Part shown: positions 1,912-57,445 of the stretch, piece by piece | Numbering within the stretch: position 1 is the first letter of the stretch | Layout: each line of letters opens with the position of its first letter | Origin: Ramazzottius varieornatus | Lineage: Eukaryota; Animalia; Tardigrada | Assembly (NCBI GenBank): GCA_001949185.1 | Contig: BDGG01000011.1 | Coordinates: 951,552 to 1,015,551 of the forward strand | Length of the DNA: 64,000 bases | Direction: 5' to 3' | Notes under the pieces: generated by a model | The model's database searches: none | What the model was told of the DNA's origin: nothing | What the model saw: the letters and a program-made list of their open reading frames with translations, nothing else | Translations under genes and position numbers: made by a program

Positions 1912-4900
1912 TTACACCTGGTCACCGCGTTTCACTTTGAGCGCGATGATTTCTTTCTCTCTTTCTTTCTGCAGAAATTCCATTTGCTTCTCATAATCTG
2001 GGCGTTTACTCTGCTTCGCTTCCTCGATGCACTGATCGTAATAGTCAATCATGGAGAAACTGTCACTGTTCACAGCAATTCGGTTAAGCTTGTCGAAAGC
2101 ATCCTTCAGTTCTCTGACGTTTTCTGCCTGTTCCACTTCTAGGTTTCGGTACTGTTTTCGAAGATCATCCAAGTATGCACGAATCCGCTGCTTATTGGAG
2201 GAGAAAATATTGAATCGCTGTAGTATTTCCTGTAGCACCTTTAGTTGCTTCTTCTTCTGGTACACGTAAATATATGGTGTATTGGAATGACAAGTCCACT
2301 CGCACTTTTTTGGGCACGCGGTGCAGAATCCAGTTTGTCGATTCATTGCCGAACAATCTCTCTTGTCGTCGTCCTTTTCAATTGCGCAGGTAGCGTGACA
2401 GGTAAAGTTGCAAACGCGGCAGTTGGTTAGGAAACGACCAGGCCCACCGGGGTGCGGCTGTCGAACGACCTCTTCGCACTCGATTTCCACGGTGTGATTG
2501 CTGTTAGCTTTTACTTCACTATCAGCCTGATCCAACTGCCTCTCGTTTGCCCGAATGGTAGCCATTCTTTCCCGCACTTCTTCACTACGTTTCAAGATGG
2601 CGTCAAGCCGCACATGAATCCGTCTGCGCTCTTCCATGACTTCTCTGCTTAAGACAAGACTTTGCGGCGTTGTGTGAACTAGTCGAGTAAAGAAGGTTTC
2701 CATGCTGGTAGCGCCAATGTCCCAGTAGGAGCGCGTAAAGGGGTCAGCTTCGTTAGCGTTCGGTTCGTACAAAGCACAGTTGTTAAACTTGCAGGTACTG
2801 GCAAAGGTGATGCCGGTTTCCTGTTCCACCCCTTTAATCAGGGCTTCAGGTCTCTTCTGGTCTGCGAAGGTTAGCAAGAGGAACATATTGCCCATAATGT
2901 CTTTACCGAACACGGACATAATGGTGTGCAAGATGTATTTCTGGCCAGCATCCAGTCGAACACTGGAGCTTGGCATAACCAGCCCAACTGCATCGATTTG
3001 ATCGATAGCCTGAAAATAATATGACGAAAGAAAGTGTAACTTTAACTTTCAAGAATTTCGAGGCTCCCTTCAGATATCATAGTTCGTTGTGGGGCCCAAG
3101 CTGCTACCGCATGTTATGACTCACCAGAGTAAGGTCGCCGCATCCGAAGAAAGCTTTCAGCTGGTCCTGGATTTCAGCATCCCGCTGAACGCCTGCAGTG
3201 TCACCCATTCCAGGGGTATCGATGATTGTGAGAGAAAACGGATAGGGACAATCGGCTCGTTTGGGTATGTGGTAACTGGACACCCACTGCGTCATACTTT
3301 TGGTCTGTTTGCCGGGGTCGCTCTCACCTTCTTCCCGAATCAATTTAAAGCGCACAGGGTCATCGAACTTCACACCAAGCATGTAGTTGGCCAGACCGTT
3401 GATTAGGGTGGTCTTGCCGGCACCGGTCTTCCCCATTAACAAAACCACCTTTTCTTGCGCGGTTTCGTTTGGCGGCGCTTTCGGGCCCACGTAGTACTTT
3501 CTGATCTTCTTATGCGGATCGCATCCGAGCTGGGTGACCGGAAGTGCGTACAGGCTTGGCTTAGCTTTGTGCAGCAACTGACACCCTTCCATGACCAGGT
3601 TAATGTAGCGCACAGGTCTCAGTTTGGGCTGACCTGCGGATCCTTCACTGTCCGTAGGGAATGACCCTGGATTCTCCTTGTGTTTTGACCTGCCTTGCCC
3701 TGCGACGGTAAATGGCTCCAATGTGTGCAGCGACCTCAGTAGTTTAGCCCGACTGTTTCCGATCCAGCCAACCGTTACCACGCTAAAGTCGTAAGCCGTT
3801 GCCGGTGAAAGGTCGTTGACCTTAACGACATTGGATATCAATCTTCCGCCATACGGAATCCAATCGTTATCGGTCTGGCGAGGAGACTTGTTGGTCTCGC
3901 GGTATTGCACCATGTATTTTTCCCTGTCGGCACGTGGACCAACTACAAAGCGCTCCTTCCATCGTAGGCTGATACTGGTCGTGGTGGCATCCGTAACTTG
4001 AAAATCCTCGACCGGAAGAGGAAGGTCAAATGGCGACTTCCTGCCTTCAGCGTAGCAGAACGTTTCCACTACGTCACCTGATAACTCCGAAGACTGAACG
4101 ACAATGCACAGCACACTTTTGTTGGCGGTAGCGTAATCCCAGTACTCGTTCGCGATCCTCTCAACAGTCTCACATGCTGACGTTTTTGTCCACGTAAACC
4201 ACGTAGGTCTGGCGTTTCGCAGATCGAATGGGGCAGGCCTGCAAAGAAAATGTATATCAAGACGACCAAGATTCTGAGATGGCCATAATTCCGACCGGTT
4301 ATACTATGCTTATTTTTCTTTCTTTTTTGATACCACGCCGTCATACCCCGCGTTGAATTCTAAAGCTACAGTTACAGGGTGATCCCGATAAGTTGGACGG
4401 ATTTTGAGCTTGAATAAAAAATGAGCAGTGCTTTCACTTCTTCGAAAATTCGTTCCCAGATATGTCTAACTATTGAAAACATTGTGTAAAAATGTTGTCG
4501 AGGTTTTGTGGTCCAGAAGGAGCACAGCGCTAAAGACGTGAACTAGGTGGAAACCAAAAAGTTTTCCCGAAACCAACATGCAATGCACTTCTTGCTGGTT
4601 TGTTTGCGTGCAAAACGTTTTAGAACAGTTTCGCTGATGCTATTCTGTAGGAAAAACGTTCTTGATATAGCAGAAAAATATCACTTACGACTTCGTGCAC
4701 ACCGTTGGATTGGCGAGCGACAATATTGCTGCTGACTCAGGGGGTAAGCAAAAGTTTTCGCGTATTTTTTGAATTATTCTCCGTCGGCAGCGTGTAAGAA
4801 CCGTCCGTTTGTTTTTTAATAATTAGTCCAAACGTCCTTCTTTCGTAAAACAATTTTATGAGGAAACCTTGTAGTTTTGTGCGTCTGATACAAATAATCT

Positions 4901-7900
4901 AACTGAGGTTCCCACTTTTTACCCGTAAAATGACGATTTTTCATAGCTCTCAACAATTAAACAATCGTTGTTTTGTTGAAGAGAATTTGACAGAAATCAA
5001 AGATGAAGACGTGTTCTATCGAATGAGCTGACGTACGAAAAATTGGAGAGAGACGCGATTTTACTACGAATTTCCAAAATCCGTCCAACTTATCGGGATC
5101 ACCCTGTAGGTGGACACCAACGTACAGGGCGCTCGCACCAACTTGCCACCACCTGCCATTTCCTCGAGGAAAAATCAGATTACTTCTTTTCTGTCTGTCC
5201 TTCCACACTACTCATACAAGTTTTCAAGCTGTTTCGTTTGAACTAAATATGAGCCGCTTCATGATATTCATGATTTTGAACAGCAGCTCGAAGAATTTGA
5301 CTAGTGTAACTTCCGGTGGGCAAGACCTATCGTAACGACCCAAACTGTTGTCCACAGGACACCATGTTATAGTTTCGATCCGACATTTGCTATCAACAGG
5401 CCAAAAACTGTATTGGTTGTACGTGAAAATCAAAAAGATCCACGGGAATATCGAAATAACTCAGCGAACGAATTTCAATCAGCGAATTCGGCCATTTTGC
5501 CGGCAAACCTTGCTCTATGAAAAAATTCCAGCTTTTGACCCGATCGGTAGAATCGTCGTTTCGACCTCTTTCCGATTATCCCAGCTCGGGATCTCATTAT
5601 TTTCGGTCACAGTGCCGCATGACTTCAACGGAAAAGTAAAAAAATAATTTTTAGAAACGACCCCAAAAATTTCGAAAGTTGATGGACTTTTGGCTTCTCT
5701 CCTCCTCCAGCTTAATGTCGCGTACGACTCTTCCTGAAAAGATTTCGGGTCGGTTATTTTTTACGAGGTTGCACACAGGATGTCAAACCAGGGAAAATTA
5801 GTTTGAAAGTTGAGTAATGATCCAGCCGAGAAGGTTATGATTTTATGGGTGGTAGCAAGTTGGTGCGAGCGCCCTGTACTTGTTACCTTGCTGGAATTTG
5901 AAGGTTGGGGGTTGGAGCTTTGGTTACGGCCAGTCGCGAAAAGTCTCAAGCATGTTACCGGCAACCCTCAACCGGGGACCACAAAATAACCGATCGCACA
6001 AGATCGGTTATTTTGCGGTGCAATTCATTCACTCGCCAGGGATTTCGGAATCAAACCCGAACCGGCCATAATCTCGAGGACCCAAAATATAAGTGGGCAG
6101 CGGAAAGATGATTTCTGTTGACACGGCTCTATGCCATTACCAGAGAGAATCTCGGGTCATGGAGCTACTGTACAGCATCCACGAGGTGAGCAGGGCGGCA
6201 GAAACCCGTAAGGTATGAAAGCTTAAGAGAAGGAAGCACGTAGCGCTAATTAGACTGAGTGAACTTGCCCATTGTCTGCTTTTGATTATCAATAAGGAAA
6301 AATCATAGAGTTGATTGGCAGCATTGGTAGCTGCAAAAAAACCGTAAAGAAATCAGGCACTGACCACTCGATGAGCATTGGTTTCCGAAATTCGTCCTAA
6401 AAAATCGAGAAGGGAGGTTGCTGCTTCTACTATTCCTAATTCGGGGTTACCATTGAGAATCAAAAACAGATTTCAGAACATAGACCACACTACGCTGTTC
6501 TGTTCGGTGCTTCTGGTTAAGTCGCGATCGTTCCTTCCCTAAAAATCCGCCGTGATGTGTTGCAAAGAGACATTTTCGAATTTAACTTATGTGACGAATG
6601 TGGATATCGGCGGCCCAATTCGAATCCCAACGCTCTGTAGGCAAATTATTCAGGAAACGAGTTTGAAGTTTTGGCACCCCAACGACAAAGTTAAACTGCT
6701 GATGCAATCTAGGGTTGCAAACAGAGGGAGACGATGTTGGGGTTCATTTGGTCGTCTGTCCAGTGATTAGGTGGCTACGGCAGGAAAATCTGAAGGGGTT
6801 CGAAATTTTGACTGAAAATGTTTTGACGTCACATCGATGTCATGCAGCCTGAAGATGTGCTTGCACGTATTTTGCAACAAAACCCGCATGTGGGGGTTAT
6901 TGCAGCTGGTACCAACCCCTGGAATTCCAGAGAAATCTTAAAAGGGCGAACAGTTTTGTGAGACTTCTATCCTTGGCGAAGCGTGGCGGCTTCACCACAC
7001 GATGTCCCTGGATATAGCTCACAACTTCATGCCAAAAAATAGTTCGAACCCAAAAAAGTTGGGCTTCAAATTGGACCGCCGATACCCATGTGCTACAAAA
7101 TTACCGAGCAAGAAATGGTTAGACATTACCGCGGTATTTGCAGTGGTTGCTCAAATTTCAACAAAATTTTGAGAAATATAATACTAGTCAGGTGTGGGAG
7201 TTCTAGCTTTAGACCCGTTTCAAAATCTTACGGAAGGACATTTCGGCTAATGACAATCATTAAGCCATAGTTCGACCCTCAGCCTTCAAACTTACCGTCG
7301 TCGATATTCGGTATCGAAAACCCGGAGTTCGCAGTAGGTTTCGAAACACATTGAGCAGGATTTGTCTGACCGAATATGACCAAACATGGCCAAATACCTC
7401 CTCAGTTTTCAACGGATACAGGGTCCGCGTTACTACCGGACTGCTAACCAGTCATCCGTTGCTGATTCTGTACCTTCTCGATGAAAGAAGCTCGAGAGTT
7501 CGATGTTGAATCTAGTAATGACAGTCAGGTGGGAGCAGGACACCAGACTTAAATCACGCTGGCTGCTGTGCTATATATACGTACCTTCGCCCAGAGGGTC
7601 CTCTCATCGGCATGGCTTCGCGATTTTTTGCAGTTCGGTATACCCGGCTCAGAGTTTGGTTGTTTCTTGCGCATGGGTTGATTGCCAGACAGACGACTGG
7701 CTGGCCAGCATGGGCGTCCGAAAAGTTTTCCAGACGTTCTGGACCAGCTATGAACTCGTACTGGCCGAGCAGATCCATGACCGCAGACAATCGATCGTTT
7801 TCTTGCATTCGACACGCTATCCACTCGCTCAGACTTGGTTGGTTCTGCTCTAGAGTCTGATGCTGATCCATGATCGCATCCAGAAGCTTCGGGTGTACAT

Positions 7901-8909
7901 CTCCGCGTTGAATATCTGGCAATCGACTCGCTATCGCGTTCTGTAGTTCAGTCCTCTTGGACTCGTTCTGAGCTAACATTTCTTGCACCGCTCTGCGTAA
8001 GAGTGACAGCTTGAAGTTGACTGGGTGCTTCAGCAAGTCTTTCAGCCGCATAGTCATTTCATCGAAGAAGCACATTATATCGATTGCATTCTCGATCAAC
8101 TTAGGTCGTAAGGTAACCTCGGCTCGCCGAATCCTGGGATCAAGACTGCTCAGAGAGTCCAGCCAAACGGACTTTGGAATGGCCGCATGGTCAATTCGTT
8201 TTGAAACTGTTGCGCGTAAGTCTCGGCAGAACTCCATCGTTTCAAATACCGTGAAGTCGAGCGTCTGAGCATCCAGATCACTATGCACGGACACTCGAAC
8301 ATGTTGGGCAATATCGTTCAGCTGACCGAATTCTCTTTGTGGTTCCCGAATCATCTGAATAATGGTTTCCGCAAGGTTCACTAGCTGTCTTTCAGCATCC
8401 GCATATGTTCGACCAGAAGCAAGCGAGTAATCCAGTACCAAGAAGAAATCCAGCCCATGTCCAATCGCCGATATCACATGGGTCCCAATGTCGTTGGCGC
8501 AAAGCGCGTTTAGGCTGTCGATGTCCTCAAAGTGTTTTTTGGTGAGACGTTCCCATTTGAAGAGGAAAATACATCCCACCACCACTCGAACCTGGTTTTG
8601 CGAGGCACGCGAATTGTATAAGTAGGATCCTGATCCAGTTGGCTTTACGATCTTCAAAGCCAGTTGCAACATAAGGTCGTCGACTTGGTCGTTGTTTAGG
8701 ATGTTCAGCTTGGTTCGTAGTGAGTCGTTCCTGATGATGTTAACGATTGGGGAAGTGGGCGAAATATACTCCACTTCCGCAGGCAGAGCTTGAGGCTCAC
8801 TTGCATTTCTCACCCGCACGAAGCTCAGTCCAATCTCGTCGGTGCGAATATCATAGATATGGCCGAGCTTGAAAGGTCTCCCGAGGGCAGCAATGCGGCG
8901 GTCAAGCAT
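1912..8909 (-). CDS. Stonustoxin/verrucotoxin-like (SNTX/MACPF-type) N-terminal domain + FN3 + AIG1/septin-like P-loop GTPase + Cys/His-rich motif + coiled coil; coding exons 8909-7585, 4238-3125, 3009-1912 (~1178 aa)
   Basis: The N-terminal motifs AALGRPFKLGHIYDIRTD, GTHVISAIGHGLDFFLVLD and AAIPKSVWLDSL resemble stonustoxin motifs. FN3 pattern: ATTTSISLRW...YMVQYR...VNDLSPATAYDFSV. GTPase motifs: G1 GKTGAGKT, G2 SMT, G3 DTPG, G4-like TFAD. Splice sites AAG|GTACGT (7584) to TTGCAG| (4239) and CTG|GTGAGT (3124) to TTTCAG| (3010) join the three ORFs in frame (phases 2 and 0). Confidence 0.85.
4375..5106. mobile_element. Non-autonomous Tc1/mariner-type element (MITE) in intron 1 of the toxin-GTPase gene
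   Basis: TIR CAGGGTGATCCCGATAAGTTGGACGGATTTT at both ends, flanked by TA; no coding capacity. Confidence 0.9.
5125..5876. mobile_element. Second non-autonomous Tc1/mariner-type element, adjacent to the first
   Basis: TIR CAGGGCGCTCGCACCAACTTGC(C/T)ACCACC at both ends with TA flanks. Confidence 0.88.
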
Positions 8910-9043
8910 TCTGGGGATACGCGATGGGATTCGGTCTCAGCTTAAACGATGCGTCTCGCATAGGATCTGTAAAAACATGGAGGCGATCCTTTCTACGCTA
9001 CAGACTTATTGATAGTAACATGTCTAAGTTCCATCACACAACC

Positions 9044-9193
9044 ACAGTAATACTACTCACAAGTATGTTGCGTCACAGAGACATTTTCTAAGCGATCTGA
9101 TCCGACATCAGCGTTCACTCTACGCAACGCCACCGCATAGGTCGCTCACAAAAGGCCTCTGTGACGCGATACACTTGTGCGGCGTATTACTGT
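9044..9193. repeat. Short imperfect hairpin/MITE
   Basis: ACAGTAATAC...CACAAGT...GCGTCACAGAG is inverted as CTCTGTGACGC...ACTTGTG...GTATTACTGT. Confidence 0.75.
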
Positions 9194-9455
9194 ATCCGTA
9201 GAACCGTCTGTTTACGACGTTCTTGTCTAAAGGTTCTCGATGACGTTACGTTACGACCAGTAGCGAAAAGGATGGTACACATACCTGCACCCAGATAACC
9301 GAACATCCACATAAATATTGTCAACCACCGTCGCGGTATGGATTTTGTCACCTAAAGTACAACGAGTGTATTGCTGCCATAAAATCATACGGTAAGTAGC
9401 TTGAATCTTATTATCATGCCGGAAATGAGCGTGGAGCTGTGGAAGTCAATATAAC

Positions 9456-13160: not shown

Positions 13161-14445
13161 CAGGGTGTTCCCTATAAGTTGGAACGATTTTGAACGCGAA
13201 CCAAAAAATCGCTAATCAACCGATTTGATTGATTCTCAAATCAACTGATTGGCAATTTTGTGGGCTTTCTTTCTGTCATTTTGGTTTTCTCTCAAAGTTG
13301 AAGATGCCTTCTCCGATCTCTGAAGACCTCAGAGTCCGTATTTTGGCTCTGAGAAGACTGAATTACAGTTGTAGTATGACAGTGAAAGCTCTGGTGAAGG
13401 AAGGGTATAGCTTGGCGAAATCTACAGTGTCTAGAGTATGGAAGAGCGTTGGGATCGAAGCCTGCAAAAAATCACCGGCGAAGATTGAGAAGAGGAAACC
13501 TCGGACACCGGTTATTAGGACCCCTACCAAAATCCGGAAAATTGCCGACCTTTGCTCGAGCGACGATCCTATTCCGCAAAGATCGATAGCAGCCAGGGTA
13601 TTTGTCTCTCTTCATACGGTAACTACCATTGTCCATCAAGATCTAGGTGCGAAGGTGCGGAAAAAGACAAAAGTCCATTACCTGACCGAAAAAGCGAAGA
13701 AGCAAAGAAAAGATCGTGCCCGTCACTTCCATGAGCTCATTTCCAACAACCTCGAGTACATCCTGACGATGGATGAAGCTATACTACCGTCGGACTTCAA
13801 GAACGGCAAGACAGATTTTGTTTATTTGTCGAAAAAAAATGTAGAAGATGGTCGGGTTGTACCCCCCTCAGTAAGATCACCCGGCTTCCCCCTTCAACGT
13901 ATGTTTGCAGCTGGATTTTCGTACCGTGGACAGACTCGCCTCTACGCTATTCCCAGGAAAGCCAAGGTCAATGCCGATGTTTTCATCCAAATGGTCTTGC
14001 GGCCAATGTTCGATTTCGATGTGCCAAATTTGTACGGAACTGATGCGCACAAAGTCATCTTCCACATGGATTGCGCCCCTTCCCACACCGCCAAAAAGAC
14101 TGTCGCATGGCTCCGAAGCCGAGGAATCAAGTTCATAACGAAGCCAGAGTGGTTGGCGAATAGTCCAAACGTGTCTTCGATGGATTTCTTCACAAACGGC
14201 TACCTCAAGAAAAAACTTTCCCATCGAACGTATTCGACCGAAGCCGGCATGAACAAGGCTGCAAAAGACGAGTACAAGAAAATCCCTTTGGGGATGTTTA
14301 GAAATTCTCTCGATTCCTGGCCTGCTCGAGTTCTTGCTATTTACAAGGCCACGGGCTCGCAAGCCCCAAATTATTAGAATAAAATCACCGCTGGGTAAAT
14401 TTCTATTCGCGCTCAAAATCGTTCCAACTTATGGGGAACACCCTG
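13161..14445 (+). mobile_element. Complete Tc1/mariner superfamily transposon, DD37D (maT) type, 1285 bp
   Basis: TIR CAGGGTGTTCCC(T/C)ATAAGTTGGAACGATTTTGA at both ends, TA target-site duplication, single transposase ORF. Confidence 0.95.
13304..14377 (+). CDS. DD37D/maT transposase (357 aa, uninterrupted)
   Basis: N-terminal HTH-like region (MPSPISEDLRVRILALRR). Catalytic TMDE...HMD-x37-D, in SPNVSSMDFF. Confidence 0.92.
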   Translation: MPSPISEDLRVRILALRRLNYSCSMTVKALVKEGYSLAKSTVSRVWKSVGIEACKKSPAKIEKRKPRTPVIRTPTKIRKIADLCSSDDPIPQRSIAARVFVSLHTVTTIVHQDLGAKVRKKTKVHYLTEKAKKQRKDRARHFHELISNNLEYILTMDEAILPSDFKNGKTDFVYLSKKNVEDGRVVPPSVRSPGFPLQRMFAAGFSYRGQTRLYAIPRKAKVNADVFIQMVLRPMFDFDVPNLYGTDAHKVIFHMDCAPSHTAKKTVAWLRSRGIKFITKPEWLANSPNVSSMDFFTNGYLKKKLSHRTYSTEAGMNKAAKDEYKKIPLGMFRNSLDSWPARVLAIYKATGSQAPNY

Positions 14446-14510: not shown

Positions 14511-15764
14511 TTACTCTTCATGAAACATGGCTGGAAGGTAGCCCAAAGGCCGCTCGAAGGTGTCGAAGCCAATTCTGAAAAGTGAGAACAATGGTCCAAT
14601 ATTGCATATCTGCTTAGCCGACATTGCTAAAAACAAGCTACTGCTACTGTACCATCGTTTGTCAGACAGTGCGTGCTAAGTTAAGAGCAGAGATAAGCTA
14701 CCTGTTAGCCTTCCACAAATCTTCGTGAGACTTCTGAGCTTCCGTCATGACCCAGGTCATGTGTAATACTGGATCCCCAGCCGCATTAGCCAGACCTGCT
14801 CACAAAGCGGATGAGCACGAATAAGTAAAAGTAATGAGAAATTTTAGGTGCAGTCCACTCGCTCGAAATCAGCACAATATCTTTCGGTTTCAGTTTGAGG
14901 CCTGCCAGACATTTACCACAGTGCCTGCCAAGCTAGAGGCGAAAATTACATAACACATGCATTACAACATGTTTTAAGCAGTGTAATCAAGTAATCAGGT
15001 GACAAGTTAATGACTGTGTGGGCATGGCGAGCAGTATCATTAATTTTGAATGATTTCGTGTTTTGAACTCGGGAAATTTGTACGGATTTCGAGCGAGGGG
15101 AGTATATATTCGATTTTGTACAGTTATGCTTTGGCTCTACAGAAGATTGCTGTGAACCCGTACATTGGCCGGTCCATGTTGTGATGCTCGATGGAGTCCA
15201 AAGTTCCACGGCTGACCTCGTCTTCTCTTTCTTGTTCCAGATCACGCGGAAAGTGATCAGTCCAGACTGGGTTGCTGTACCTCGCACCTCATTACTGACC
15301 GACATTTCTGTAAGAAAATTCTTCTTTATTAGGCAAAGCATACGTGTGAATAAGCGGTAATAGATTGTAATGAAAACAAGGCTTGGAAAACTGTACTAAC
15401 GTAATTTATCCGTGTCGTTACAGCCAGGTAGATGTACTCTAGTCTGGAACGATCCGCCGAACGCAATGGGGTATGCTGAGTTGGCAAGCCTTCTGAGAAT
15501 CAGCTTCGATTTATGTTGGTTATACCATGTTCCGTTCAAAAACGTGCAGACGGGCAGAAGATCACGAGTAAGATGACTGTTTGTTCGAGAATGATACTGA
15601 TGGATGTCATCATCGAGCTCGGTGTTACCGGAAGAACGTTTGACGAGGCCGGGATATCCGTCGCGGTCTCTCGAATGGTCATCTGGATCCCGCTCTGCAT
15701 ACAACGATCCGGTACAAAATATTGCGACGTAAAAAGCCGAGAAAAGGACCGCGGTCCAGTGCAT
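14511..15764 (-). CDS. Secreted avidin-family protein with N-terminal pro-region; exons 15764-15401, 15307-15164, 14795-14702, 14574-14511 (221 aa)
   Basis: Signal peptide MHWTAVLFSAFYVAIFCTGSLYA. The spliced product has avidin motifs CTFLNGTWYNQHKS, FGGSFQTRV, ITFRVIW, SITTWTGQC, VLHMTWVMT and DLWKANRIGFDTFER. All three introns are GT-AG and phase-consistent (666 nt total). Confidence 0.88.
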
Positions 15765-16651
15765 TATTATTATGCTGACAGAGCGCTGAATGACAAATGT
15801 ACACAAGGTTCTCGCAGGGGTCCCCAGCACTTGCTTTTTACCGATACCTCCAAAAGGAATCCACCAGTGTGCATTCATGTAGTACTGTTATTTGTTTCCT
15901 GCCACCTACTGTCTCGGTTGTGATTCATCTAGATCAAAGCTGGACAATTAGAGTTCGCATATCGAAGGCCACTTTCAGGTTCAAACTCCAGCTGCTGATG
16001 CCAACCTCCAAACTAACTTAGCTAGGAAGTGACAGCGGTCCTGCGGGTTCCTGTAGGGACATTCACCCTCGAAGCCTTGGTACTTCTGATCGACCCCGCC
16101 AGTGGATCTGAATGCATTGCGCCAACTTATCATTCTAGAAACAGCAATATTCATGTTGATGTTGATACATGTTGATACATGTGCATGTGTATGACCGCAC
16201 GCAAAGCTCAAAAATCTTCGGAGCCTATGCCGACGGTCGAATCACGCTTGAGCAAAAGATTAAATTTCGTTCGAGAAGATAAGCACAACAGACACGTACA
16301 TAAACTGAGAAAGTCAAGGTGGCGAACTTAAACTGCGCGTTTGGTTTGAGAAGTGAAGGTTCCATGCAGCTTCAGAACGCACAGAACTGAAATTATGTCT
16401 ACGGACGGTCATACGTGTGATCAAATCGATTCAATAGTCATTACACGGCAAGCGAAAATTCAAAACTAGAGCAAAGAATTCTCATAACAATGAGAGTCAC
16501 ACGGCGAAACGACATTCTGGCAAACTAGCTTCGTGGGTCTTCACAGTTATCCGCTTCAAAATTTAGTCTGACTTTTTCAATTGGTTGTTGGGTCGTGGAT
16601 TATTAACGTTCGGAGTAACTTCAACTTCCGCGTTGTATGGTTTCCTCGACC

Positions 16652-18440
16652 ATGGAAAAAACCTGGACTAGGATTATTCTGGCGGCTTCTCTCCATGGTA
16701 AGGCTTTCTTGCCGCCGAAGGTTCCGTCAATCTACCTTATAAAAGTTTACTGACAATACCGCCTTTGTTTGCAGCTCTTGTACTGGGTGCGCCCCTGAAA
16801 TCCAAAGATGTCACAGATGACACTAGCGATGAGTCCACAGCAGAAGCTCGAGGATACAATGCCAATCCACGCCAAAACTCGTACGGCAATCATGGCAATT
16901 CATATGGTGGAGGAGGCGGAGGTTACGGTGGCGTGAACGTGCCATCCTATCCAGGAGTGCCGGCTTCACCAGGTCTACCCTACTCCCCAGGTATACCACA
17001 GTCTCCGGGACTGCCTTACTCACCTGGTATACCTCACTCGCCCGGACTTCCATATTCACCGGGCATTCCAGCCTCTCCTGGACTACCTTATTCCCCAGGC
17101 TTGCCTCCGTCACCTGGGCTTCCATACTCGCCGGGTATCCCTGCCGCTCCCGGCTTGCCGTACGCACCTGGTTTGCCTCCGTCGCCCGGTCTGCCCTACA
17201 GCCCCGGACTTCCCCCAGCACCTGGATTACCCGGCGCACCAGGCCTCCCACCAGCGCCTGGCCTACCTTATGCTCCCGGCTTACCACCAGCACCAGGTAA
17301 CTGCAATACCCTTCTCACCCAAAAACGTTTAACGACGACTCTTAAAATAACTTAAAAAAGAACGTAATACAGTCCGCTCGATCGAAATCTGGTACCTATT
17401 TCTCCGATTTTGTTTTGAAGTCTGCTCTACATCGCCATACAGCACGACAAGCCAAGGCCGAAATTACATTAGACATAAATTACACCGTAGCTTTACTGGT
17501 GTGATCAAGTAATCAACCCGCATGTGGACCGGCTGTGTCGGTATGGCTCGCAGTATCGTTAATTTTGCACGATTTCTTTATTTTGAAATCGCAAAATCAG
17601 GTACTAGATTTCGAGCAACTGGACTGTAAAAAGTGTGACGAATTCTACTTTGCCCTCTGGTGTGAGGTAGATTAATCCTTCATAGGTCTTCCCGGTGCAC
17701 CCGGTCTTCCTCCTTCCCCTGGCCTTCCACCCGCACCTGGTCTTCCAGGAGCACCAGGCCTCCCTCCAGCACCAGGTCTTCCACCCGCACCCGGCCTGCC
17801 TGGCGCACCGGGTCTACCACCGGCACCAGGCTTTCCACCCGCACCCGGCCTGCCCGGAGTTCCCGGATTACCTCCTGCTCCTGGTCTGCCACCAGCGCCC
17901 GGACTACCCGGAGCACCTGGTCTTCCACCTGCCCCCGGGCTACCCGGAGCACCTGGTCTCCCACCTGCCCCCGGGCTACCCGGAGCACCCGGCCTACCAC
18001 CCGCTCCGGGCCTTCCTGGAGCTCCGGGCCTCCCACCGGCGCCAGGTCTTCCTTACGCACCAGGGCTACCACCTTCGCCAGGTCTGCCGTACTCCCCTGG
18101 CATTCCTGCCAGTCCCGGCTTGCCATATTCCCCAGGCATTCCAGCTTCGCCTGGACTACCTTATGCACCAGGCCTGCCACCTGTTGCATCTTATCCTGCT
18201 GTGCCAGTAAGTTCATTTCCATTTAACTGGCAGACGCAAGTGGAAGAATTTTGCAGCGTCCCTCAGTCTACAGGTACAAACATTGGGGCTCTACGCAGAA
18301 ATGACTTTGGTTTTTCTTCGTAGTCTGTACCATACGGACACTCGGGTAGCTCTTACGGATCGAAGAGCCATAGCTACGGCTCTGATAGTTCATCGAACAA
18401 CGGTTATGGTTCCTCTCAGAACGGCAGCTACCAAAGATAG
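16652..18440 (+). CDS. Secreted Pro/Gly-rich hexapeptide-repeat (PG[LI]Px[SA]) structural protein; exons 16652-16697, 16775-17296, 17686-18206, 18324-18440 (~401 aa)
   Basis: Signal peptide [22 protein letters not shown]. Roughly 45-50 hexapeptide repeats with varied synonymous codons, and Gly/Ser/Tyr-rich ends. Canonical, phase-consistent splice sites; an in-frame upstream ATG exists at 16637. Confidence 0.88.
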
Positions 18441-22836: not shown

Positions 22837-25318
22837 CTAGTTTTTGACGCCACGAATTCGGCAGATTGCTTCATTCTTGTATATTGGCAGCAGTTTGTCG
22901 TCTGGTTGTTCACTGAGGACCTGGATCAATAGCTTTTCGTCCACCAACTTTTTGTCACAGAGCGTGGCCATGTAGTGCTGGAATGGATCGCAGAAGACGT
23001 GCTTGCCAGAAACCGATGTGAAATTCCATGCGCCTACATCTCCGCTTCTGATACTCCCGAACCGGTGTTCCCTCGTTCCATCTTTTATGCTTCCAAAAGT
23101 AAAAGTGGCGGTGTGGCCGAACACTTTCCATGAAAATTCCACCGCTTCCTTCCCGATTCCCTTACTGTAGATTGTAGCTAACTTTTTGCAGGCAAGTTCT
23201 GGATTATCGCCTAACTGCAAACGCCCAATTGTCACTTGCTGGTTGGTAGAGTGGCAGTCACGGGCTTTCGTGTCTATGAGACATCTCATGAAATAGGGAT
23301 GGGACAATTTTGCATCAGGCTTCGTGTCAGTCAGAAACGGATGCTCCGCTAGTAAGCCATAGTCCAACCGGTCGGCAGGGTCCACTTGCAATAAGCAGCC
23401 TAGGAGGCATTGAAGTTCCTTCGATGCCAGAGTAGAGGGCAAACTTGGAACTCGACTTTGAACATTAGACTGAAGTTGCTTCAAAACTTCCTTGCCCACC
23501 GTATTGGGCCCGTAATTCATGCCCCCAACTGCATCTGTCGGGTCCAAATCAGACAACTCTTTTCGACCACACAAACTGGCATACAGAATCATTCCGAGAC
23601 TCCATAAATCGGCTTTCTCGGTATACGAAGCCACATCTCTACCGTGTTTGTTGCCAACCCACTGCAGTACTTCTGGTGCCATGTATAAGAATGTTCCGCG
23701 AGCGTATGTGCTGATATTTTTCGTTTCTGAAAGTTTCTTACACGACCCGAAGTCGGCAATCTTTAGCACAATATCGGTGTACTTCAGTTCTTCGTTGTGC
23801 ATTTCACGCGCCTCACCACCTTTCGATACATAAAGAAGGATGTTAGCCGGCTTCAGGTCCCTGTGTACTATACCGACTGCGCGTAAAGTGCTGATTCCAT
23901 TTGCAATTTGCTGCGAGAAGCATTGCAGCTCACTTTCCGGACGTTTCCCCATTCCTGCAAAGAAGTAGTATGGCAGAGCAGAGCATCACCTGGGCTGCAG
24001 CAGTTCAGCGTACTTTGTAAATACTGCTCAAAGTCTCCTCCATTGCAATATTCCATCACGATGCGCAACCTACGTTCTGCAAACACCTGAAACGGTATAA
24101 CAATTATTAATACAACAGCGTGGAGGTACATGCAGGCCTGGTAAGCCGGGTTAATTCCAACCTCGTGGGTTTCAAAGACCTGTACCAGATTTGCGTTCCT
24201 CATGGGCGAAAGAATCTGAAACAGAGCCGCGCTCACAGTTAGGCAATCCATACACAAGATCGTTGATTGTTCATTATTGATTCAACAGTAGTCAGCCGTT
24301 AGACATTTCCGGTGCCATGAAACTTTACCCTTATAGCGCTCAGCTCTCGCTCAATAGTTTTATAGTTTTCGACGATCGAAGTATCCACGTGCTTTACCGC
24401 TACGAATTCCCCCGTCTAAACAATAAGAGACAGTCATGTTGTGGCCACGACAAATTCAAACTAGTAAGATTATGTTCAGCAATGAATTTCGAACAGTGAT
24501 TCATCACGGCAGGCACGCCGCAAACCGTTCTACTTGGTACATACTGTACACCGGCTCTCATAAGTATTCGGTCACCCCCATCTTTACCAGAAAATTCATA
24601 TCTTCCTTCCTATTTAGCCGACTCTTATACTCTTAACTGAATTACAGAGAAGAATGTTTTGTATTTCCACTCACGTGACTTGGGATTCATCTCAACAATA
24701 AATCAACTCGCAGCTATCGACTGGGAAACCCTCAAAACTGACTCGTTGCCGGCACTCCGCTGTGCCAGTGGTCCGTTTGATGACACAACATCCTATCCAC
24801 TATAAAATCCGACAAACANNNNNNNNNNNNNNNNNNNNNNNNNNNNNNNNNNNNNNNNNNNNNNNNNNCTTCCCAAACTTTTCGTGCGTAATGCCAAAAA
24901 CTTCTCACGTATTCTTATTTGAAAGGCCGATGTTTGCCGGATTTTAGAGTGAGTCGGATGTTGTGTCAACAAACGGACTGATGGCGCAGCGGAGTGCCGG
25001 CAACGAGTCAGTTTTGAGGGTTTCCCAGTCGATAGCTGCGAGTTGATTTATTGTTGAGATGAATCCCAAGTCACGTGAGTGGAAATACAAAACATTCTTC
25101 TCTGTAATTCAGTTAAAAGTATAAGAATCAGCTGAATACGAGAGAAAATATGAATTTTCTGGTAAAGATGGGGGTGACCGAATACTTATGAGAGCCAGTG
25201 TAAGTCTTACCTTTTCGTGACGATATAAAAAGACTATCCCACTGGATCCCCAACCTAAAGCATGTCGATTTTCTACCATCTTGAATTGTCCAGCTCGGAA
25301 ACTACCTGGAGAAACCAT
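22837..25318 (-). CDS. Ser/Thr protein kinase, Atg1/ULK-like, with a divergent C-terminal extension; 5 coding exons
   Basis: LGWGSSGIV (25318-25211), VAVK (~24415-24329), NLVQVFE, IVMEYCNGGD, HRDLKPANILL, IADFG, GTFLYMAPEV, KADLWSLG. Confidence 0.85.
24547..25202. mobile_element. Foldback/MITE with ~250-bp imperfect inverted arms around an N gap, in kinase intron 1
   Basis: TACACCGGCTCTCATAAGTATTCGGTCACCCCCATC... is inverted as ...GATGGGGGTGACCGAATACTTATGAGAGCCAGTGTA. The arms have several mismatches and TA ends. Confidence 0.8.
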
Positions 25319-48601: not shown

Positions 48602-48989
48602 CTTAGGGCACTAGTTATCCTAACAAACGATGGATGAGAAGATCACAGTCGACAGTTCGCCCGAAAAGTTGTGTGTGAGAGAGAGAAACGATCGTGAAAA
48701 ATCCACTCAATCCAAATTTGATCCAAATCCACTCATTTCCAAATATTCCGAAAACGCTGTAATAGCCGTGCATTGATTGAATGGAGACAGCGAAATATCT
48801 TGATTGGGTGGATTTGGGGCATTCGGTTTTGAATTTCCGAATTTCAACCTCGTTATCATAATATTTGGAATTTCTCTCGTCGCTCCTCCGCATCTTTCTT
48901 CGATCCAGGAACAGCGAACATTGAGTCTAATCCTCTGTTGTATTACAAGAAGGTTCCATCTGCCTAAAACGAAGCTCACGGGAGGAGGG
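48602..48989. promoter_or_regulatory. Putative bidirectional promoter between POLD4 and RBM42
   Basis: Divergent start codons only ~390 bp apart. Inferred from geometry; no motif assigned. Confidence 0.55.
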
Positions 48990-50302
48990 ATGGCTAGCAT
49001 GGAGGACGAGATGCGTCGCTTCGAGATGGAGTTAGCTGGTACGGCGCCTCTTCAGCCACCACCGCCAGGCCACGTCGTTGGCCCACAACATCCGGGCATC
49101 TTCCAGCCGACTCTTCAACATGGACCGACCATCGCTCAACAACCGATGCCCATGAGGTTCATTCCTCATCAGCTGATGCACCGTGGTCCCGTCCCGCGTC
49201 CACAACCCTACGTCGTTCACGCAGCGCCTCAACCAGCACAGTCTTCCTTCAATCCCTTCATGCCCATGATGCCTCCCATGTTTCCTCGGATGCCCTCGAT
49301 GCAGTCCAGCCAGCCTTCCACCTCAACGCAGAGGACGAATGTCCAGCAGAACACGCTACAAGTTAGCGCCAACAAGGCCATGTTGGACGCTCAGAAAGCT
49401 ATGGCCATGCAGGTAAAAATTTAATTGAAGTAATTTCGATAATATGACGTCACCCGCTGGTTTAGTTTGGCTTCACGTACATTAGTCGTACGGGAAGTGC
49501 TAAGTCAGCTCAATGACGTAACGATGTTCACAGCGTTAGTCAACTATCAATCAGGCTCGACAAGATTATTTTCTCATGTGGCACAGGCTTTCGGCCAATA
49601 ATATCAGCACTGTGCGCCACTTGGAAAACCATCCTGTGGAGTTCGTTTGCCAAGTGGAGCATGTTTTCACTGTTATTGTATGAGGGCGTGCGCCGCTTGG
49701 AAAGTGACATCGTTGAGTTCCCAAGTGTTGCACGCTTTTACCCTATAACACTGACAGTGTGCGCCACTTGGGAAAACGATTTCAGTCGAGTTTCTTTGCC
49801 GATTAAATGATTAAAATAATATTCTTGGTTTGTTTTCTAGGTGAAAGAGCCTCCGGTGATGGGACCTCAAGTCACACCCAAGACGATAGAAGAGAAAGAT
49901 CTGTCGAACAAAGCCAAGAAGAACATCAAGTACCTCAGGACTGCTGGCGGAGATGTCTGGGAAGACACCAGCCTGGCTGAGTTCGATCCGAACGACTATC
50001 GGATTTTCTGTGGTGATCTGGGTAACGAAGTCAACGACGAAGCCCTTGCCCGGGCATTCCGAAGATATCCCACTTTCCAGAAAGCCAAGGTGGTCAGGGA
50101 CAAGAAGTCGAACAAAAGTAAAGGCTACGGGTTCGTCAGTTTCAAGGACCCGGACGACTTCGTGAAGGCCATGAAGGAAATGAATGGGAAGTACGTGGGC
50201 AATCGACCTATCAAGCTAAGGAAAAGTGCGTGGAAGGAGCGGCAGTTGGATGTTGCGAAGAAACGCGTCAAAGAAAAGCAAAAACTGGGACTTCGAATTT
50301 AA
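48990..50302 (+). CDS. RBM42: RNA-binding protein 42; exons 48990-49412, 49841-50302 (294 aa)
   Basis: MEDEMRRFEMEL N-terminus, Pro-rich middle, and RRM RTAGGDVWEDTSLAEFDPNDYRIFCGDLGNEVND...KGYGFVSF...GKYVGNRPIKLRKS. Confidence 0.95.
49575..49785. repeat. GTGCGCCACTTGG(A/G)AAA / TTCCAAGTGGCGCAC alternating-orientation repeat family; also at ~33470-33600, 41945-42110, 42668, 44780-44985, 47520-47655 and 62600-62655
   Basis: The same ~15-bp motif recurs in head-to-head and tail-to-tail arrays, almost always inside introns. Confidence 0.8.
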
Positions 50303-50660
50303 CTGTTCTTTTTTTCCTCTTCTCGTTTCGTTCGATTTTTATTTTGTTGCTGTTTTCACTGAACATAAGCAACTTTTCCGCGACGAATATTCTTCGAGAT
50401 GCAAGTCAAGACTCGAAACCGAATTTTTACCGACAACAAAACACGAGAAGGCTGAAAACCGTAACGCACTAGATCGTTACCTTAAGTGACGCACTCTTCC
50501 AGCCAGGAACAATGAGGAGATGCGCCACTCGAGGACGACGATCTTGTACGCTTTGTTTGCCCATCCGCGATCAGAATTTTGAAGATCGTTGACAGAATAC
50601 AGCGTAGTAAAAGTAAAACGAGTAATTTCTAAACATCAGAATATACTGAACAATCTTCGG

Positions 50661-51919
50661 CTAGAATACAAGGTTTTCAGCCTTCTGAAGAGCCTTCAGA
50701 AGAGGGGCTAACGCTTCCGGCAGGGTTTTCCCCGAAGGACCCAAGAAGAGGTAATTACTAGCATCAGCTCCACCGGTCAGTTCCATGTTAAACTCCGCCA
50801 CGCTGACGCTCCTGGCTGCGACATGGGGGGCAAACATAGCAGCAGGGTAGACTACCGAAGAAGTACCAACCACCAGACACAGATCACAGCTACCGAGTTC
50901 TTGGTAGACTCTCTTGAGCACTTCCTCGTCGAGATTCTCGCCGAACCACACAACGTGCGGTCTGAGCAGTCCACCACAGCTCCCGCATCTCGGTAACTGC
51001 TCCTCAGGTATCTTTAGCTGCTCATTGTCCGCATCTGGCATCCTGTCATTCGAAGTTTATCAGCAAGAAGGATGTACTGTAAAAGGAATGAAAACGGAAT
51101 TTAGCTACCTCGCGTCTTTCAGTGCGTCGCAGATTGGAACTTGGAGATTCTCCTCCACTTTCCGACATTTCGTGCATTCTGTCTTGAACAGACTTCCATG
51201 GATCTCAATAACATTCTTCGAGCCTGCTCTCTGATGAAGGCCGTCGATATTCTGTGTGACGATCGTCAGCTTCTTCTCGTTGTTTTCCAAAACCGCTTCG
51301 GTTTCCGCCAATGCAACATGTCCCTGCCATCAAGAGAACGCAAATCAAGCAATAGCACGCAGTACATGAACCGCGCCATCCGTTCGATCCGGTTAGCATG
51401 ACGCTCATAGTCATATCAGCCTGCACACTTAGGACATCGCGCATGACGTCACAAAACAACTAAACGAAACCTGCACGAGTCAGCGACGCATGACGTATTG
51501 CATGAATTTCTTCCATGCTTTCTCTTTCAGTTGTTTCTCACAGGGTTCGGTTTGGTTTGGAGTACAGTGGCTCGTCGATATTCATAAAACGTCCATACGA
51601 GGGAAGGATCCCGGACGAATGCGCCGTAAGTCGCGAGCTCCGTGGCGGAATATTTGCCCCAAAATCCTCCCGCGCCGCGAAACGTCGGGATGCCACTCTC
51701 AGCACTGACGCCTGCCCCCGTCAGCACAACAATCCTTCTGGCTTTGATAAGCTCTGCCTGGAACGATTCCTGTTGCCGAACCCGATCCGTCGCCCAGGCA
51801 GACAGCAAACGCCGACGGTGCGAGAGATCGTTGTGCAGCGCCATCGATGTCAAGAGTGGCGGACGGTAGCCTGGCCCTGCGAACGTCCTTAGACTGGTCA
51901 CAAAAATGCGGAGCTTCAT
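50661..51919 (-). CDS. SIRT5: NAD-dependent deacylase sirtuin-5 (class III); exons 51919-51542, 51323-51109, 51042-50661
   Basis: [21 protein letters not shown] (class III YxxR), [16 protein letters not shown], CxxC...Cxx[22 protein letters not shown]. The Arg-rich N-terminus resembles a mitochondrial transit peptide. Confidence 0.93.
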
Positions 51920-53874
51920 AAGCTGAACAGATAACGAAACGGATGCAATATAGCGACCTGTCTGTTGAGGAGATTTGGTTGGGGATTTAAATGAGACTTT
52001 ACTGCACATCTAAACGCCTTCGTTGTCGAAGTTCGAATGCCTTTCTTTCAGGAGGAGCCATGCGGTTTCATTGGTGATAGCTATTGAGCTTAGGTTTTGT
52101 ATGTACGTACTTCCGTCTCGCACCGAGTATGGTGGCGGGAGAAGTGAGTGGAAGCTGTTGGCCGTCTTGGCAGAGACTACAGTCTTGAGTTTTGTGTGAG
52201 ATCGTGCGGCAGTAAAGTTCCTTCCCGTTTTTCCCCACGAATTCATCTGTCTTTCGTCTCTAACAAGGCTAAGTGCCTCCAAGGACCTTCGGCGATCTTC
52301 ACCTAGTCAGGTAGCACTGCTCCCGCGGACAGTAGGATAAAGTATCCAGGATTCGGCCAGTAGCATCTTCAAAAGGGACTAACGTCTTCGAGGACTTCTT
52401 CCTTTCTGTGGACCGAAGCGAGGTAAGTCGTAAGATTTACAGGTAGCTAGCGGTGTTAAGTACATGTGAGGCCTTTGCTTAATTTCTTGGAGTGCAGGAA
52501 GCTTTGTGGTGCGAGGTTACTGAGCATTTGTCCGACAGGAAGTGCATGGGGATATTAACGTGTGAGTTTGTGTAGGGGAAATTACAGCTTGACCGAGTTT
52601 GCCGAGTCCTTTCATTCTATAAATTCAGAGTGACGTCTGAATAAATATTCCTTGCTATGGGACGTAAAATTTTGTATCGAGGTGTTCATCGGGAGTTCTA
52701 CGGAGGCGACTGCCTTATATTTTGAGCCGATATTCTTGGGCATTTTGCCCTTTGTCGGTTTGTTTGCCCTTTGCAACAATTCAAGGGTGTGGTGTCACCA
52801 GAGTGGGGACAAAAGCACGGAAGAAATTAGGTGAAATCAAATTTAAAACTAGGAGTGCTAAATTGCTAATACGGAAGTCACGCACAATCAACGGATTTGA
52901 TTGCTCAGCTGGCTTCTGTCTTGTGCTGTTTAGCGCCGCAATTCTACTGTGACGTTGTTGCGGCTTTGGGCGTGGCAGCTTACTGTGCTATGCGCTACCA
53001 AACTTCTTCGCTCAATGGGCGAAATTAACATGGGCCGTAAAATCCCCATCGTTCCTCCTTTCGAAGCGCGTTGTAGCGACATGGGGTTCCCGCTAGCGAA
53101 GCGCAAACGGATAACACTGTCTAGGCGGTCTAGGTTCGGGTGACGGGTCGCTTTGCGGTGCGGCAAGGCTTTGTAAATTTTCGGAAATTGAGTTTTCCGA
53201 GTTAGAACTCTGAATGCGATGTTTGGCTTTTTCTGGGTATCTTTTCTTCGGTACGGTTCGTGGACAAAGTTTTATTCTGTCATCATTGTCTTTTCGATAA
53301 GCTACCACTGTACAGTTAATGTCCGAATCCTTTCTGTTCGCAACCTTGACGAGAGAAGTGCTGGAGGTGCTGGAAGATAAGTTCAGCAATCAGCACCGAG
53401 GCAGAAGCCATCTTTCACCACCGGAAGTCACAGGTTATTTCCACTCCCGATCCCGAAACTTACAGAGCTTGGCCCCTGAAAATGTTTAGCTGACCCGTGG
53501 CCTATAAGAAATCCCTGGGCCCCTGCGCTCCGACACCAGGTCGTTCGTCGTATGACGTCACCCGAAGGAGGAGGGGCAGGGACACACGAACATCGTTTAT
53601 TGAGCGAAGAAGTTTGGCGCCACCATGCGTACCGTGCGATTCGGACTTGTGGGCCTGGTTTTAGGTGTTCGGGCCACCACCGTACGGGGCTTTCGGGTAG
53701 TGATGTTGGCATATACCATTATTGTATTAAATTAATCAATGTTAGATGCTTTTCTTATCTAATATATTTTATTAACATTCATCAGATGGCTCCCACGAAA
53801 AATTTATTAAATTAACGTGACGCTCTGGAACGTTGGATGCCTGGGTATGCCGATGGAGGGCAACTGCAATTAGA

Positions 53875-57100: not shown

Positions 57101-57445
57101 TGAGCGACGGACAATCATAGTTTGTAACGTCTGTAACACTCATGTTTGTGCTAGACATAGAAATACAAAGCAAACCGTTCTCTGTTTAGATTGTAGCAAG
57201 AAGAAGTCCAAGTGAAGCGTGAATAATGGTAAATGAAATGATTTCAAATAAACTGGCTGAAGCTACACCCGGGTCATGTGGCGCCATATAACGGTAGTTC
57301 AGTACAGTATCGTTCGCTGCTTCATGTGGGTGCACGGTGATTGGCCGGTCTCCGCCTGTTTCATTTTGCAACCAGTTGAAAACGTGCGAAACTCAGTTGT
57401 ACCCTTCGTATTCTGCAGGTACGAAATTGCTTCGTGTTCAGAGTG
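54185..57445 (+). mobile_element. Full-length piggyBac transposon (3.26 kb), defective
   Basis: TTAA target-site duplication at 54181-54184 and 57446-57449. 13-bp TIR CACTCTGAACACG. Asymmetric sub-terminal inverted repeat GGGTACAACT...TTTCGCAC. Confidence 0.93.
55333..57215 (+). pseudogene. piggyBac transposase pseudogene (frameshifts, one intron)
   Basis: Acidic N-terminus, CVDEQLFPFKGRC...KP.KYGLK, VTIDNFFTS, YNRTKAGVDTLDQ, RWPMALF and a C-terminal Cys-rich domain, spread over different frames. Frameshifts near 55975 and ~56710. Confidence 0.9.

Follow-up and report, generated by a model that had tools for sequence, protein, structure and literature searches.

A tardigrade fusion of a stonustoxin-type MACPF module with a Toc34/GIMAP-like GTPase: a possible blunted member of a proposed GTP-switched membrane-attack family

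INTRODUCTION

The known triggers of pore formers in the MACPF/CDC superfamily are lipids, pH, calcium, proteolysis and partner proteins. Among the described systems closest to the locus reported here is the stonefish toxin stonustoxin (SNTX; PDB 4WVM), whose alpha and beta chains of approximately 700 amino acids (aa) carry an MACPF/CDC domain, a FAT-like helical domain and a thioredoxin-like domain, followed by PRY-SPRY. The present study concerns a minus-strand gene of the tardigrade Ramazzottius varieornatus, situated in a 64-kb window of contig BDGG01000011.1 (the window being the whole stretch of 64000 nt analysed, to which all coordinates refer), whose 1178-aa product has the same three domains in the same order and likewise no signal peptide, but carries a fibronectin type III domain (FN3), a GTPase and a predicted Cys/His-tipped hairpin where stonustoxin has PRY-SPRY. 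It differs further from stonustoxin in that the glycine of strand beta-4 and the amphipathic alternation of the second transmembrane hairpin (TMH2) are absent, the host is non-venomous and no partner subunit was found among the family matches.

The fusion architecture is not new: it is widespread and has been noted in print, although it is apparently unstudied. A 2020 study describes SNTX-like sequences of snakes, other reptiles and turtles in which SPRY gives way to FN3 and an MMR_HSR1 GTP-binding domain, and refrains from inferring a function (PMC7579844). Excerpts of a second paper report SNTX-like sequences lacking B30.2/SPRY in bloodworms and a turtle, and the lack of a signal peptide in stonustoxin itself (PMC4202326), and a passage of a third mentions longer sntx-like genes, leaving their domains undescribed (PMC10566576). 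The reptile sequences, together with uncharacterized proteins of 1100-1300 aa from fish, sharks, echinoderms, crustaceans and a flatworm, share the architecture and the invariant GTPase and Cys/His residues of the tardigrade protein, which among them is the most diverged of 86 and belongs to a small minority in which each of the three pore marks is worn. We found no functional study of any member of the fusion family, subscription journals lying outside the search; the literature searched likewise yielded no MACPF-superfamily pore former under the control of a GTPase of its own, and the papers searched make no mention of the public record of the tardigrade protein, RvY_15053. The reading that we favour, and hold tentatively, is that this fusion protein without a signal peptide is likely a blunted member, its GTPase half doing the work, of a family that probably acts as a GTP-switched system of membrane attack in the cytosol.

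RESULTS AND DISCUSSION

One spliced gene encodes the fusion protein

Three open reading frames (ORFs), which a sequence-only reading had proposed to splice into one protein of approximately 1178 aa, are joined in transcripts. The coding exons at 8909-7585 (1325 nt), 4238-3125 (1114 nt) and 3009-1912 (1098 nt) on the minus strand together give 1178 codons and a stop, with no internal stops, and both introns (3346 nt, phase 2, and 115 nt, phase 0) have GT..AG borders. In each of the four RNA-like runs, which come from four studies and whose RNA nature is the tool's guess, no run being on record as RNA, a single contig of 3.8-4.1 kb spans the gene, skipping introns 1 and 2 as well as a 5'-untranslated region (UTR) intron at 8967-9284, with zero letter differences from the window. 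Both proposed junctions, 7585/4238 and 3125/3009, are thus present in the contigs of all four. As a control, contigs from two low-depth runs of unrecorded kind from one sample ran unspliced across the same borders, again with 0 differences; runs X21 and X23 gave only 157- and 192-nt pieces, which have no bearing on expression. In addition, RvY_15053 (hypothetical, 1178 aa; P0001 in our alignments) matches the products of all three exons at 100% identity. Two separate genes, or a read-through artefact of annotation, are ruled out by the spliced contigs together with the unspliced controls, and tblastn within the window found no second copy of the gene.

The predicted absence of a signal peptide also held. 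An in-frame TGA at 8939-8937 lies upstream of the ATG within the spliced exon, so that no signal peptide can be added, and the first 30 residues contain no hydrophobic stretch (maximum 8-residue Kyte-Doolittle value 1.0). The parts of the gene, all on the minus strand, are as follows.

9285..9352 (-): 5'-UTR exon, with further upstream sequence in three runs (spliced contigs)
7585..8966 (-): exon with the start codon at 8909, residues 1-442 (ORF and spliced contigs)
4239..7584 (-): intron 1, 3346 nt, phase 2 (spliced versus unspliced contigs)
3125..4238 (-): exon, residues 442-813 (ORF and spliced contigs)
3010..3124 (-): intron 2, 115 nt, phase 0 (spliced contigs)
1912..3009 (-): last coding exon, residues 814-1178 and stop, with the 3'-UTR extending to at least 1723 (spliced contigs)

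Intron 1 contains dispersed repeats (window 4300-7100), to which numerous contigs 85-95% alike map.

The N-terminal half is predicted to have the stonustoxin fold

Residues 6-382 match stonustoxin beta in sequence (E 2.5e-15), and a structural model of exon 1, built on a 70-row alignment with a predicted local distance difference test score (pLDDT) of 86.7, has 4wvm_B as its top structural match (Z 20.9, root-mean-square deviation 2.6 over 348 residues), ahead of a runner-up at Z 12.6 and then of CDC-like proteins and MACPFs. In the full-length model (58 rows, pLDDT 82.1, predicted template modelling score (pTM) 0.52), residues 1-515 align with 4-504 of the same chain, including the thioredoxin-like domain (Z 21.3, deviation 2.8 over 422 residues, 21% identity). 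The model contains the bent four-stranded sheet of MACPF/CDC proteins (strands 55-59, 106-121, 144-162 and 205-210, with helical clusters between), and the trait of the SNTX branch, FAT-like helical and thioredoxin-like domains after the MACPF, is present, with PF21109 above its cut-off and the fold alignment reaching residue 515. The SNTX-type MACPF/CDC fold suspected for this part of the protein was therefore recovered by both models. In Pfam, exon 1 gave no match to MACPF_SNTX (PF24674) at E 0.1, two relatives barely passing it with 28.9 and 27.1 bits against a cut-off of 27, and PF18078 (thioredoxin-like) had no match in this protein.

8130..8909 (-): MACPF/CDC-like domain, residues 1-260 (SNTX alignment, model)
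7764..8114 (-): SNTX helical (FAT-like) domain, residues 266-382 (Pfam PF21109, 31.4 bits, cut-off 27; model)
4049..7757 (-): thioredoxin-like domain, residues approximately 385-505, with intron 1 inside (model aligned to 4wvm_B)
3725..4021 (-): FN3 domain, residues approximately 515-613 (Pfam PF00041, E 7e-9; model)
2674..3457 (-): P-loop GTPase, residues 703-925, with intron 2 inside (motifs, Pfam, model)
2506..2655 (-): first long helix, predicted hairpin arm, residues 932-981 (model)
2287..2421 (-): Cys/His cluster, residues 1010-1054 (8 Cys and 2 His invariant in 58/58 rows)
2077..2232 (-): second long helix, predicted return arm, residues 1073-1124 (model)

The domain order given by the sequence-only reading was borne out, its SNTX part resolving into MACPF/CDC, helical (FAT) and thioredoxin-like domains and its terminal 'long coiled coil' into two helices on either side of the Cys/His cluster. 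In the full model the G domain is followed by helix 932-981, strand 986-998, the cluster, strand 1059-1071 and helix 1073-1124, an order from which we infer a helical hairpin tipped by the 8 Cys and 2 His. The cluster may bind zinc. Structural matches of this module, folded within the full model, were generic helix hairpins (HP0958, Z 12.4), and we assign it to neither a known nor a new fold.

FN3 and G domain are separated by a disordered linker, residues 619-648, with pLDDT below 50. This linker bears on an explanation in which the GTPase-bearing C-terminal half serves as a sensor that inhibits the protein, until cleavage there frees the MACPF part in the manner of gasdermins; GTP would then control access and not ring assembly. 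The pTM of 0.52 suggests that the halves are not rigidly packed, and GTPase halves without MACPF are common (87 of 213 family matches have one G domain and no module, some surely being fragments). However, no part of the family alignment is less conserved than the linker (mean top-residue share 0.24, 34% gaps), no cleavage motif common to the members was seen in it, and a freed domain would still bear the worn hairpin described below; we consider release by cleavage very improbable.

The GTPase is intact and of the AIG1/Toc34/septin group

Motifs G1 (711-718), G2 (Thr758), G3 (DxxG, 782-785) and G4 (TxxD, 860-863) are all intact. Gly711, Gly716, Asp782 to Gly785, Thr860 and Asp863 are invariant in 58/58 rows, Thr758 is found in 57/58 and Arg831 in 56/58. 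The nearest solved G domains in a structure search with the full model were Toc33 (Z 15.1), GIMAP7 (Z 13.5) and GIMAP4 (Z 13.4), and a G-domain profile search matched septins and Toc33/34. Pfam AIG1 scored 37.5 bits (cut-off 27), whereas Septin, at 23.3 bits, fell below its cut-off of 26.2. These data agree with the earlier assignment to the AIG1/Toc34/septin group. The protein differs from Toc33/Toc34 and GIMAP/AIG1 proteins in that identity is 14-20% and the AIG1 profile is matched in part, at positions 3-133 of 212; to our knowledge, neither a Cys/His-tipped hairpin nor fusion to an MACPF is a feature of those proteins.

Arg831 sits after strand 820-826; the trait expected of this GTPase group is a trans-acting arginine finger after beta-4 of the G domain. 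Paraseptin GTPases employ an arginine finger across the G-dimer (PMC11238149), and by analogy Arg831 is a candidate trans-acting finger. A complex prediction of two G domains with GTP and Mg scored 0.53 against 0.39 for a control and carries no weight for or against dimerization.

The pore machinery is worn in the tardigrade copy

Hairpin boundaries were taken from the SNTX alignment and the model, and amphipathicity was scored, as a crude measure, by the longest alternating apolar run in the TMH1 and TMH2 regions compared with shuffles.

8592..8723 (-): TMH1 region, residues 63-106, alternation partly retained, Pro90 in the second strand (SNTX alignment, model)
8295..8429 (-): TMH2 region, residues 161-205, no amphipathic alternation (run score)
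8280..8282 (-): Ser210 at the conserved beta-4 glycine site, SNTX-beta G209 (SNTX alignment)

TMH1 of the tardigrade copy has an alternating Leu/Ile face and a run of 5 (shuffle p 0.26; family median 8; 6/68 relatives as low), and TMH2, charged on both faces, has a run of 2 (shuffle p 1.0; family median 5.5; 5/68 as low). Shuffles were beaten (p<=0.05) by 47/68 relatives in TMH1 and 21/68 in TMH2, compared with 2/68 and 0/68 in two helical control segments. The beta-4 position is Gly in 66/86 family rows and Ser in 10/87; Gly and both hairpins are retained in 49/86, and in only 3/87 are all three pore marks as worn as in the tardigrade copy. A review excerpt gives G208/G209 of SNTX as required for the pre-pore to form (PMC8704401), and glycines at the equivalent site serve as a hinge in pleurotolysin and in a CDC, according to a passage of PMC4318580. 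Among family members a TMH2 run below 5 occurred in 18 of the 20 non-Gly rows compared with 17 of the 66 Gly rows. We had also considered that the non-Gly copies form one subunit class; this is rejected by the GTPase tree, on which glycine loss is recurrent, with 13 changes, at least 9 of them forced by starred branches. The tree is a quick one without a mixture model, the tardigrade protein stands in it on a long branch of unsure placement, and the closest relative, P0078, was left out as it has no G domain.

In a comparison with that closest relative, identity within the N-terminal module is lowest in TMH2 (38%, other parts 46-70%), and the GTPase and Cys cluster are 85% and 83% identical. 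Conserved family sites are retained at 25/47 in the MACPF core, 5/10 in TMH1, 6/15 at helical sites, 12/36 in the hairpin helices, 68/92 in the GTPase and 17/17 in the Cys cluster, the last two being better kept than the MACPF core (p 0.02). Three of the features tested, namely PRY-SPRY, the beta-4 glycine and TMH2, place the protein outside the lytic stonustoxins. The label 'membrane-attack effector', given to it by the sequence-only reading, is a better fit for the family than for the tardigrade copy, because its beta-4 glycine and TMH2 alternation are absent.

Several observations weigh against reading this wear as a specific loss of pore formation. The tardigrade copy is the most diverged family member of 86 (end branch 1.5), TMH1 has eroded no further than the regions around it (Fisher p 1.0), and general divergence may account in part for the worn signature. 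The TMH2 test is failed by 47/68 relatives too, and the closest relative also has Ser at the glycine site, yet its TMH2 run is 6 (p 0.04, 5 prolines). The link between glycine and TMH2 is weak when phylogeny is taken into account (over 9 independent pairs the median p is 0.031 under one cut-off and 0.25 under the second), and the glycine requirement is taken from a review rather than from a primary paper.

As an alternative, the tardigrade copy could form pores actively under GTP gating, its hairpins still able to insert despite their divergence, either unaided or together with a second subunit on the pattern of SNTX alpha/beta. The three-domain SNTX module folds confidently, the frame is intact and spliced, the Leu/Ile face of TMH1 is retained within an erosion that is not TMH1-specific, and Gly to Ser is a small change, seen in 10/87 rows. 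We nevertheless judge an active pore unlikely, given a TMH2 with charges on both faces and a run of 2, the missing beta-4 glycine and a search that revealed no partner, the only other named R. varieornatus protein among the family matches being a 356-aa GTPase/Cys piece. That protein, RvY_12042 (P0130), is encoded outside the window, is 52-54% identical over the GTPase and Cys parts and is without MACPF as annotated.

The family is large, widespread and varied in architecture

With phmmer, the E<=0.001 threshold gave 3632 representatives and the E<=1e-30 threshold 1053, most of the latter through the GTPase half; a profile built from alignment A2 recovered nothing beyond the query and a neogenin. 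The family is large; it is found in fish models, and its members are misleadingly annotated as venom subunits or septins. Among the 213 top matches examined, which are not a census, 89 have the full SNTX module and GTPase, eight a partial module, 87 one GTPase without the module (some being fragments), 27 several GTPases and two neither. Named members with the full architecture come from teleosts, bowfin, sturgeon, bichir, skate, shark, lizard, starfish, sea cucumber, crayfish, shrimp, Daphnia and the flatworm Macrostomum, and with the tardigrade span five phyla, which bears out the mention in the sequence-only reading of uncharacterized relatives in other animals. The extension before the MACPF is <=10 residues in 67 of the 86 proteins with a matched MACPF start and longer in 19, of which five have a hydrophobic stretch. 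Look-alike clusters in the ESM Atlas include Ascomycota, Basidiomycota and Rotifera among them.

That reading had also supposed that PRY-SPRY was replaced by the GTPase. The polarity is probably the reverse: going by taxonomic range, the GTPase form is probably older than the PRY-SPRY venom form, and PRY-SPRY a later swap, because SPRY forms are described for vertebrates and GTPase forms span five phyla.

In scans of 30 and 9 chosen proteins, the partners of the GTPase module were CARD, B-box, RING-B-box, PARP12-like CCCH fingers and FN3 arrays that differ in length. It was also seen as 2-4 tandem copies, or with CARD in Owenia, RING-B-box in Carassius and PARP12-like CCCH fingers in Darwinula. 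Four paralogs of anchovy lie on contigs of equal length and are probably in tandem. Members from Caranx and Lates nest within those of clupeiforms (herring, anchovy), in a nine-row clade (P0010, P0018 and P0011 among it) with SH-aLRT 100. Excerpts of PMC12107551 report horizontal transfer of a 'stonustoxin' gene, HOG0004450, between fish; matched by clade, not by accession, this suggests that what was transferred is the form fused to the GTPase, its pore signature intact.

An immune role of the family may be proposed from these fusion partners, from the tandem paralogs and from the match to the published fish-to-fish transfer (PMC12107551). The alternative is a non-immune role in membrane remodelling or trafficking, septin- or Toc34-like, with the MACPF fold as a scaffold as in non-lytic proteins of the perforin-like kind, astrotactin being one. 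In its favour are the single copy in the window among housekeeping-type neighbours, the full-length assembly in four separate studies, the strong conservation of GTPase and Cys cluster and the worn pore signature. The CARD and RING-B-box fusions, the variation in FN3 number, the tandem paralogs and the transfer between fish fit host-pathogen conflict instead, although they are not binding on the tardigrade copy, and a non-immune role seems to us quite improbable.

A GTP-switched model for the family

For the favoured reading, that of a blunted member of a GTP-switched membrane-attack family, we envisage the following sequence of events. In family members generally, FN3 and the hairpin would choose the target membrane in PRY-SPRY's stead, GTP binding would bring about a G-domain dimer with Arg831 as the candidate trans-acting finger, and dimerization would gather the MACPF domains ring-wise. 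Where a member has kept the beta-4 glycine and both hairpins are amphipathic, this ring would then open as a beta-barrel pore. The GTP switch is suggested by the intact motifs and, by analogy, by the mode of action of paraseptins in the excerpts of PMC11238149. The tardigrade copy may bind membranes, cycle GTP and assemble there as a scaffold, coat or regulator, and would form no canonical barrel alone, because its GTPase and Cys cluster are intact and its glycine and second hairpin are not.

A wider idea, which we find rather doubtful, is that the ancestor of the stonefish toxin was a bilaterian-wide intracellular 'GTP-switched perforin', in which a paraseptin GTPase, equipped with a zinc-tipped hairpin, located a pathogen or vacuole membrane, dimerized on it and nucleated an MACPF pore there, and from which pore-dead copies, the tardigrade one among them, were repeatedly spun off as caps, initiators or scaffolds. 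A family with its own dimerizing GTPase would unite the two main cell-autonomous defences, GTPase coats and pores, in one chain, and would account for stonustoxin's missing signal peptide through descent from a cytosolic protein. The immunity GTPases GBP and IRG are cytosolic, have helical stalks and assemble on pathogen or vacuole membranes, and are not known to carry a pore-forming domain. Their likeness to the tardigrade protein is one of functional analogy only, as they belong to another GTPase clade and are absent among the listed top structural matches. The tardigrade copy itself offers a natural comparison, in which the switch is the same and the pore is worn.

Other features of the window

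Outside the gene, the window contains the following.

13229-14377 (+): open frame of 382 aa, with Pfam HTH_32 as its only match (E 3e-4), which we take to resemble a Tc1/mariner transposase
15396-15887 (-): ORF piece, presumably avidin-like by eye, with no Pfam match at E 0.001
16702-18323 (+): two ORFs of Pro/Gly-rich short repeats, one matching Pfam Collagen (E 1e-10)
22837-23985 (-): protein kinase ORF (Pfam Pkinase, E 2e-29)
approximately 25800-46800 (-): dynein heavy chain-like multi-exon gene, one exon matching AAA_5 (E 1e-18)
48804-52009: RRM protein gene (+) and Sir2-family exon (-)
55581-57215 (+): DDE_Tnp_1_7 transposase in three frame-shifted pieces, presumably piggyBac-like

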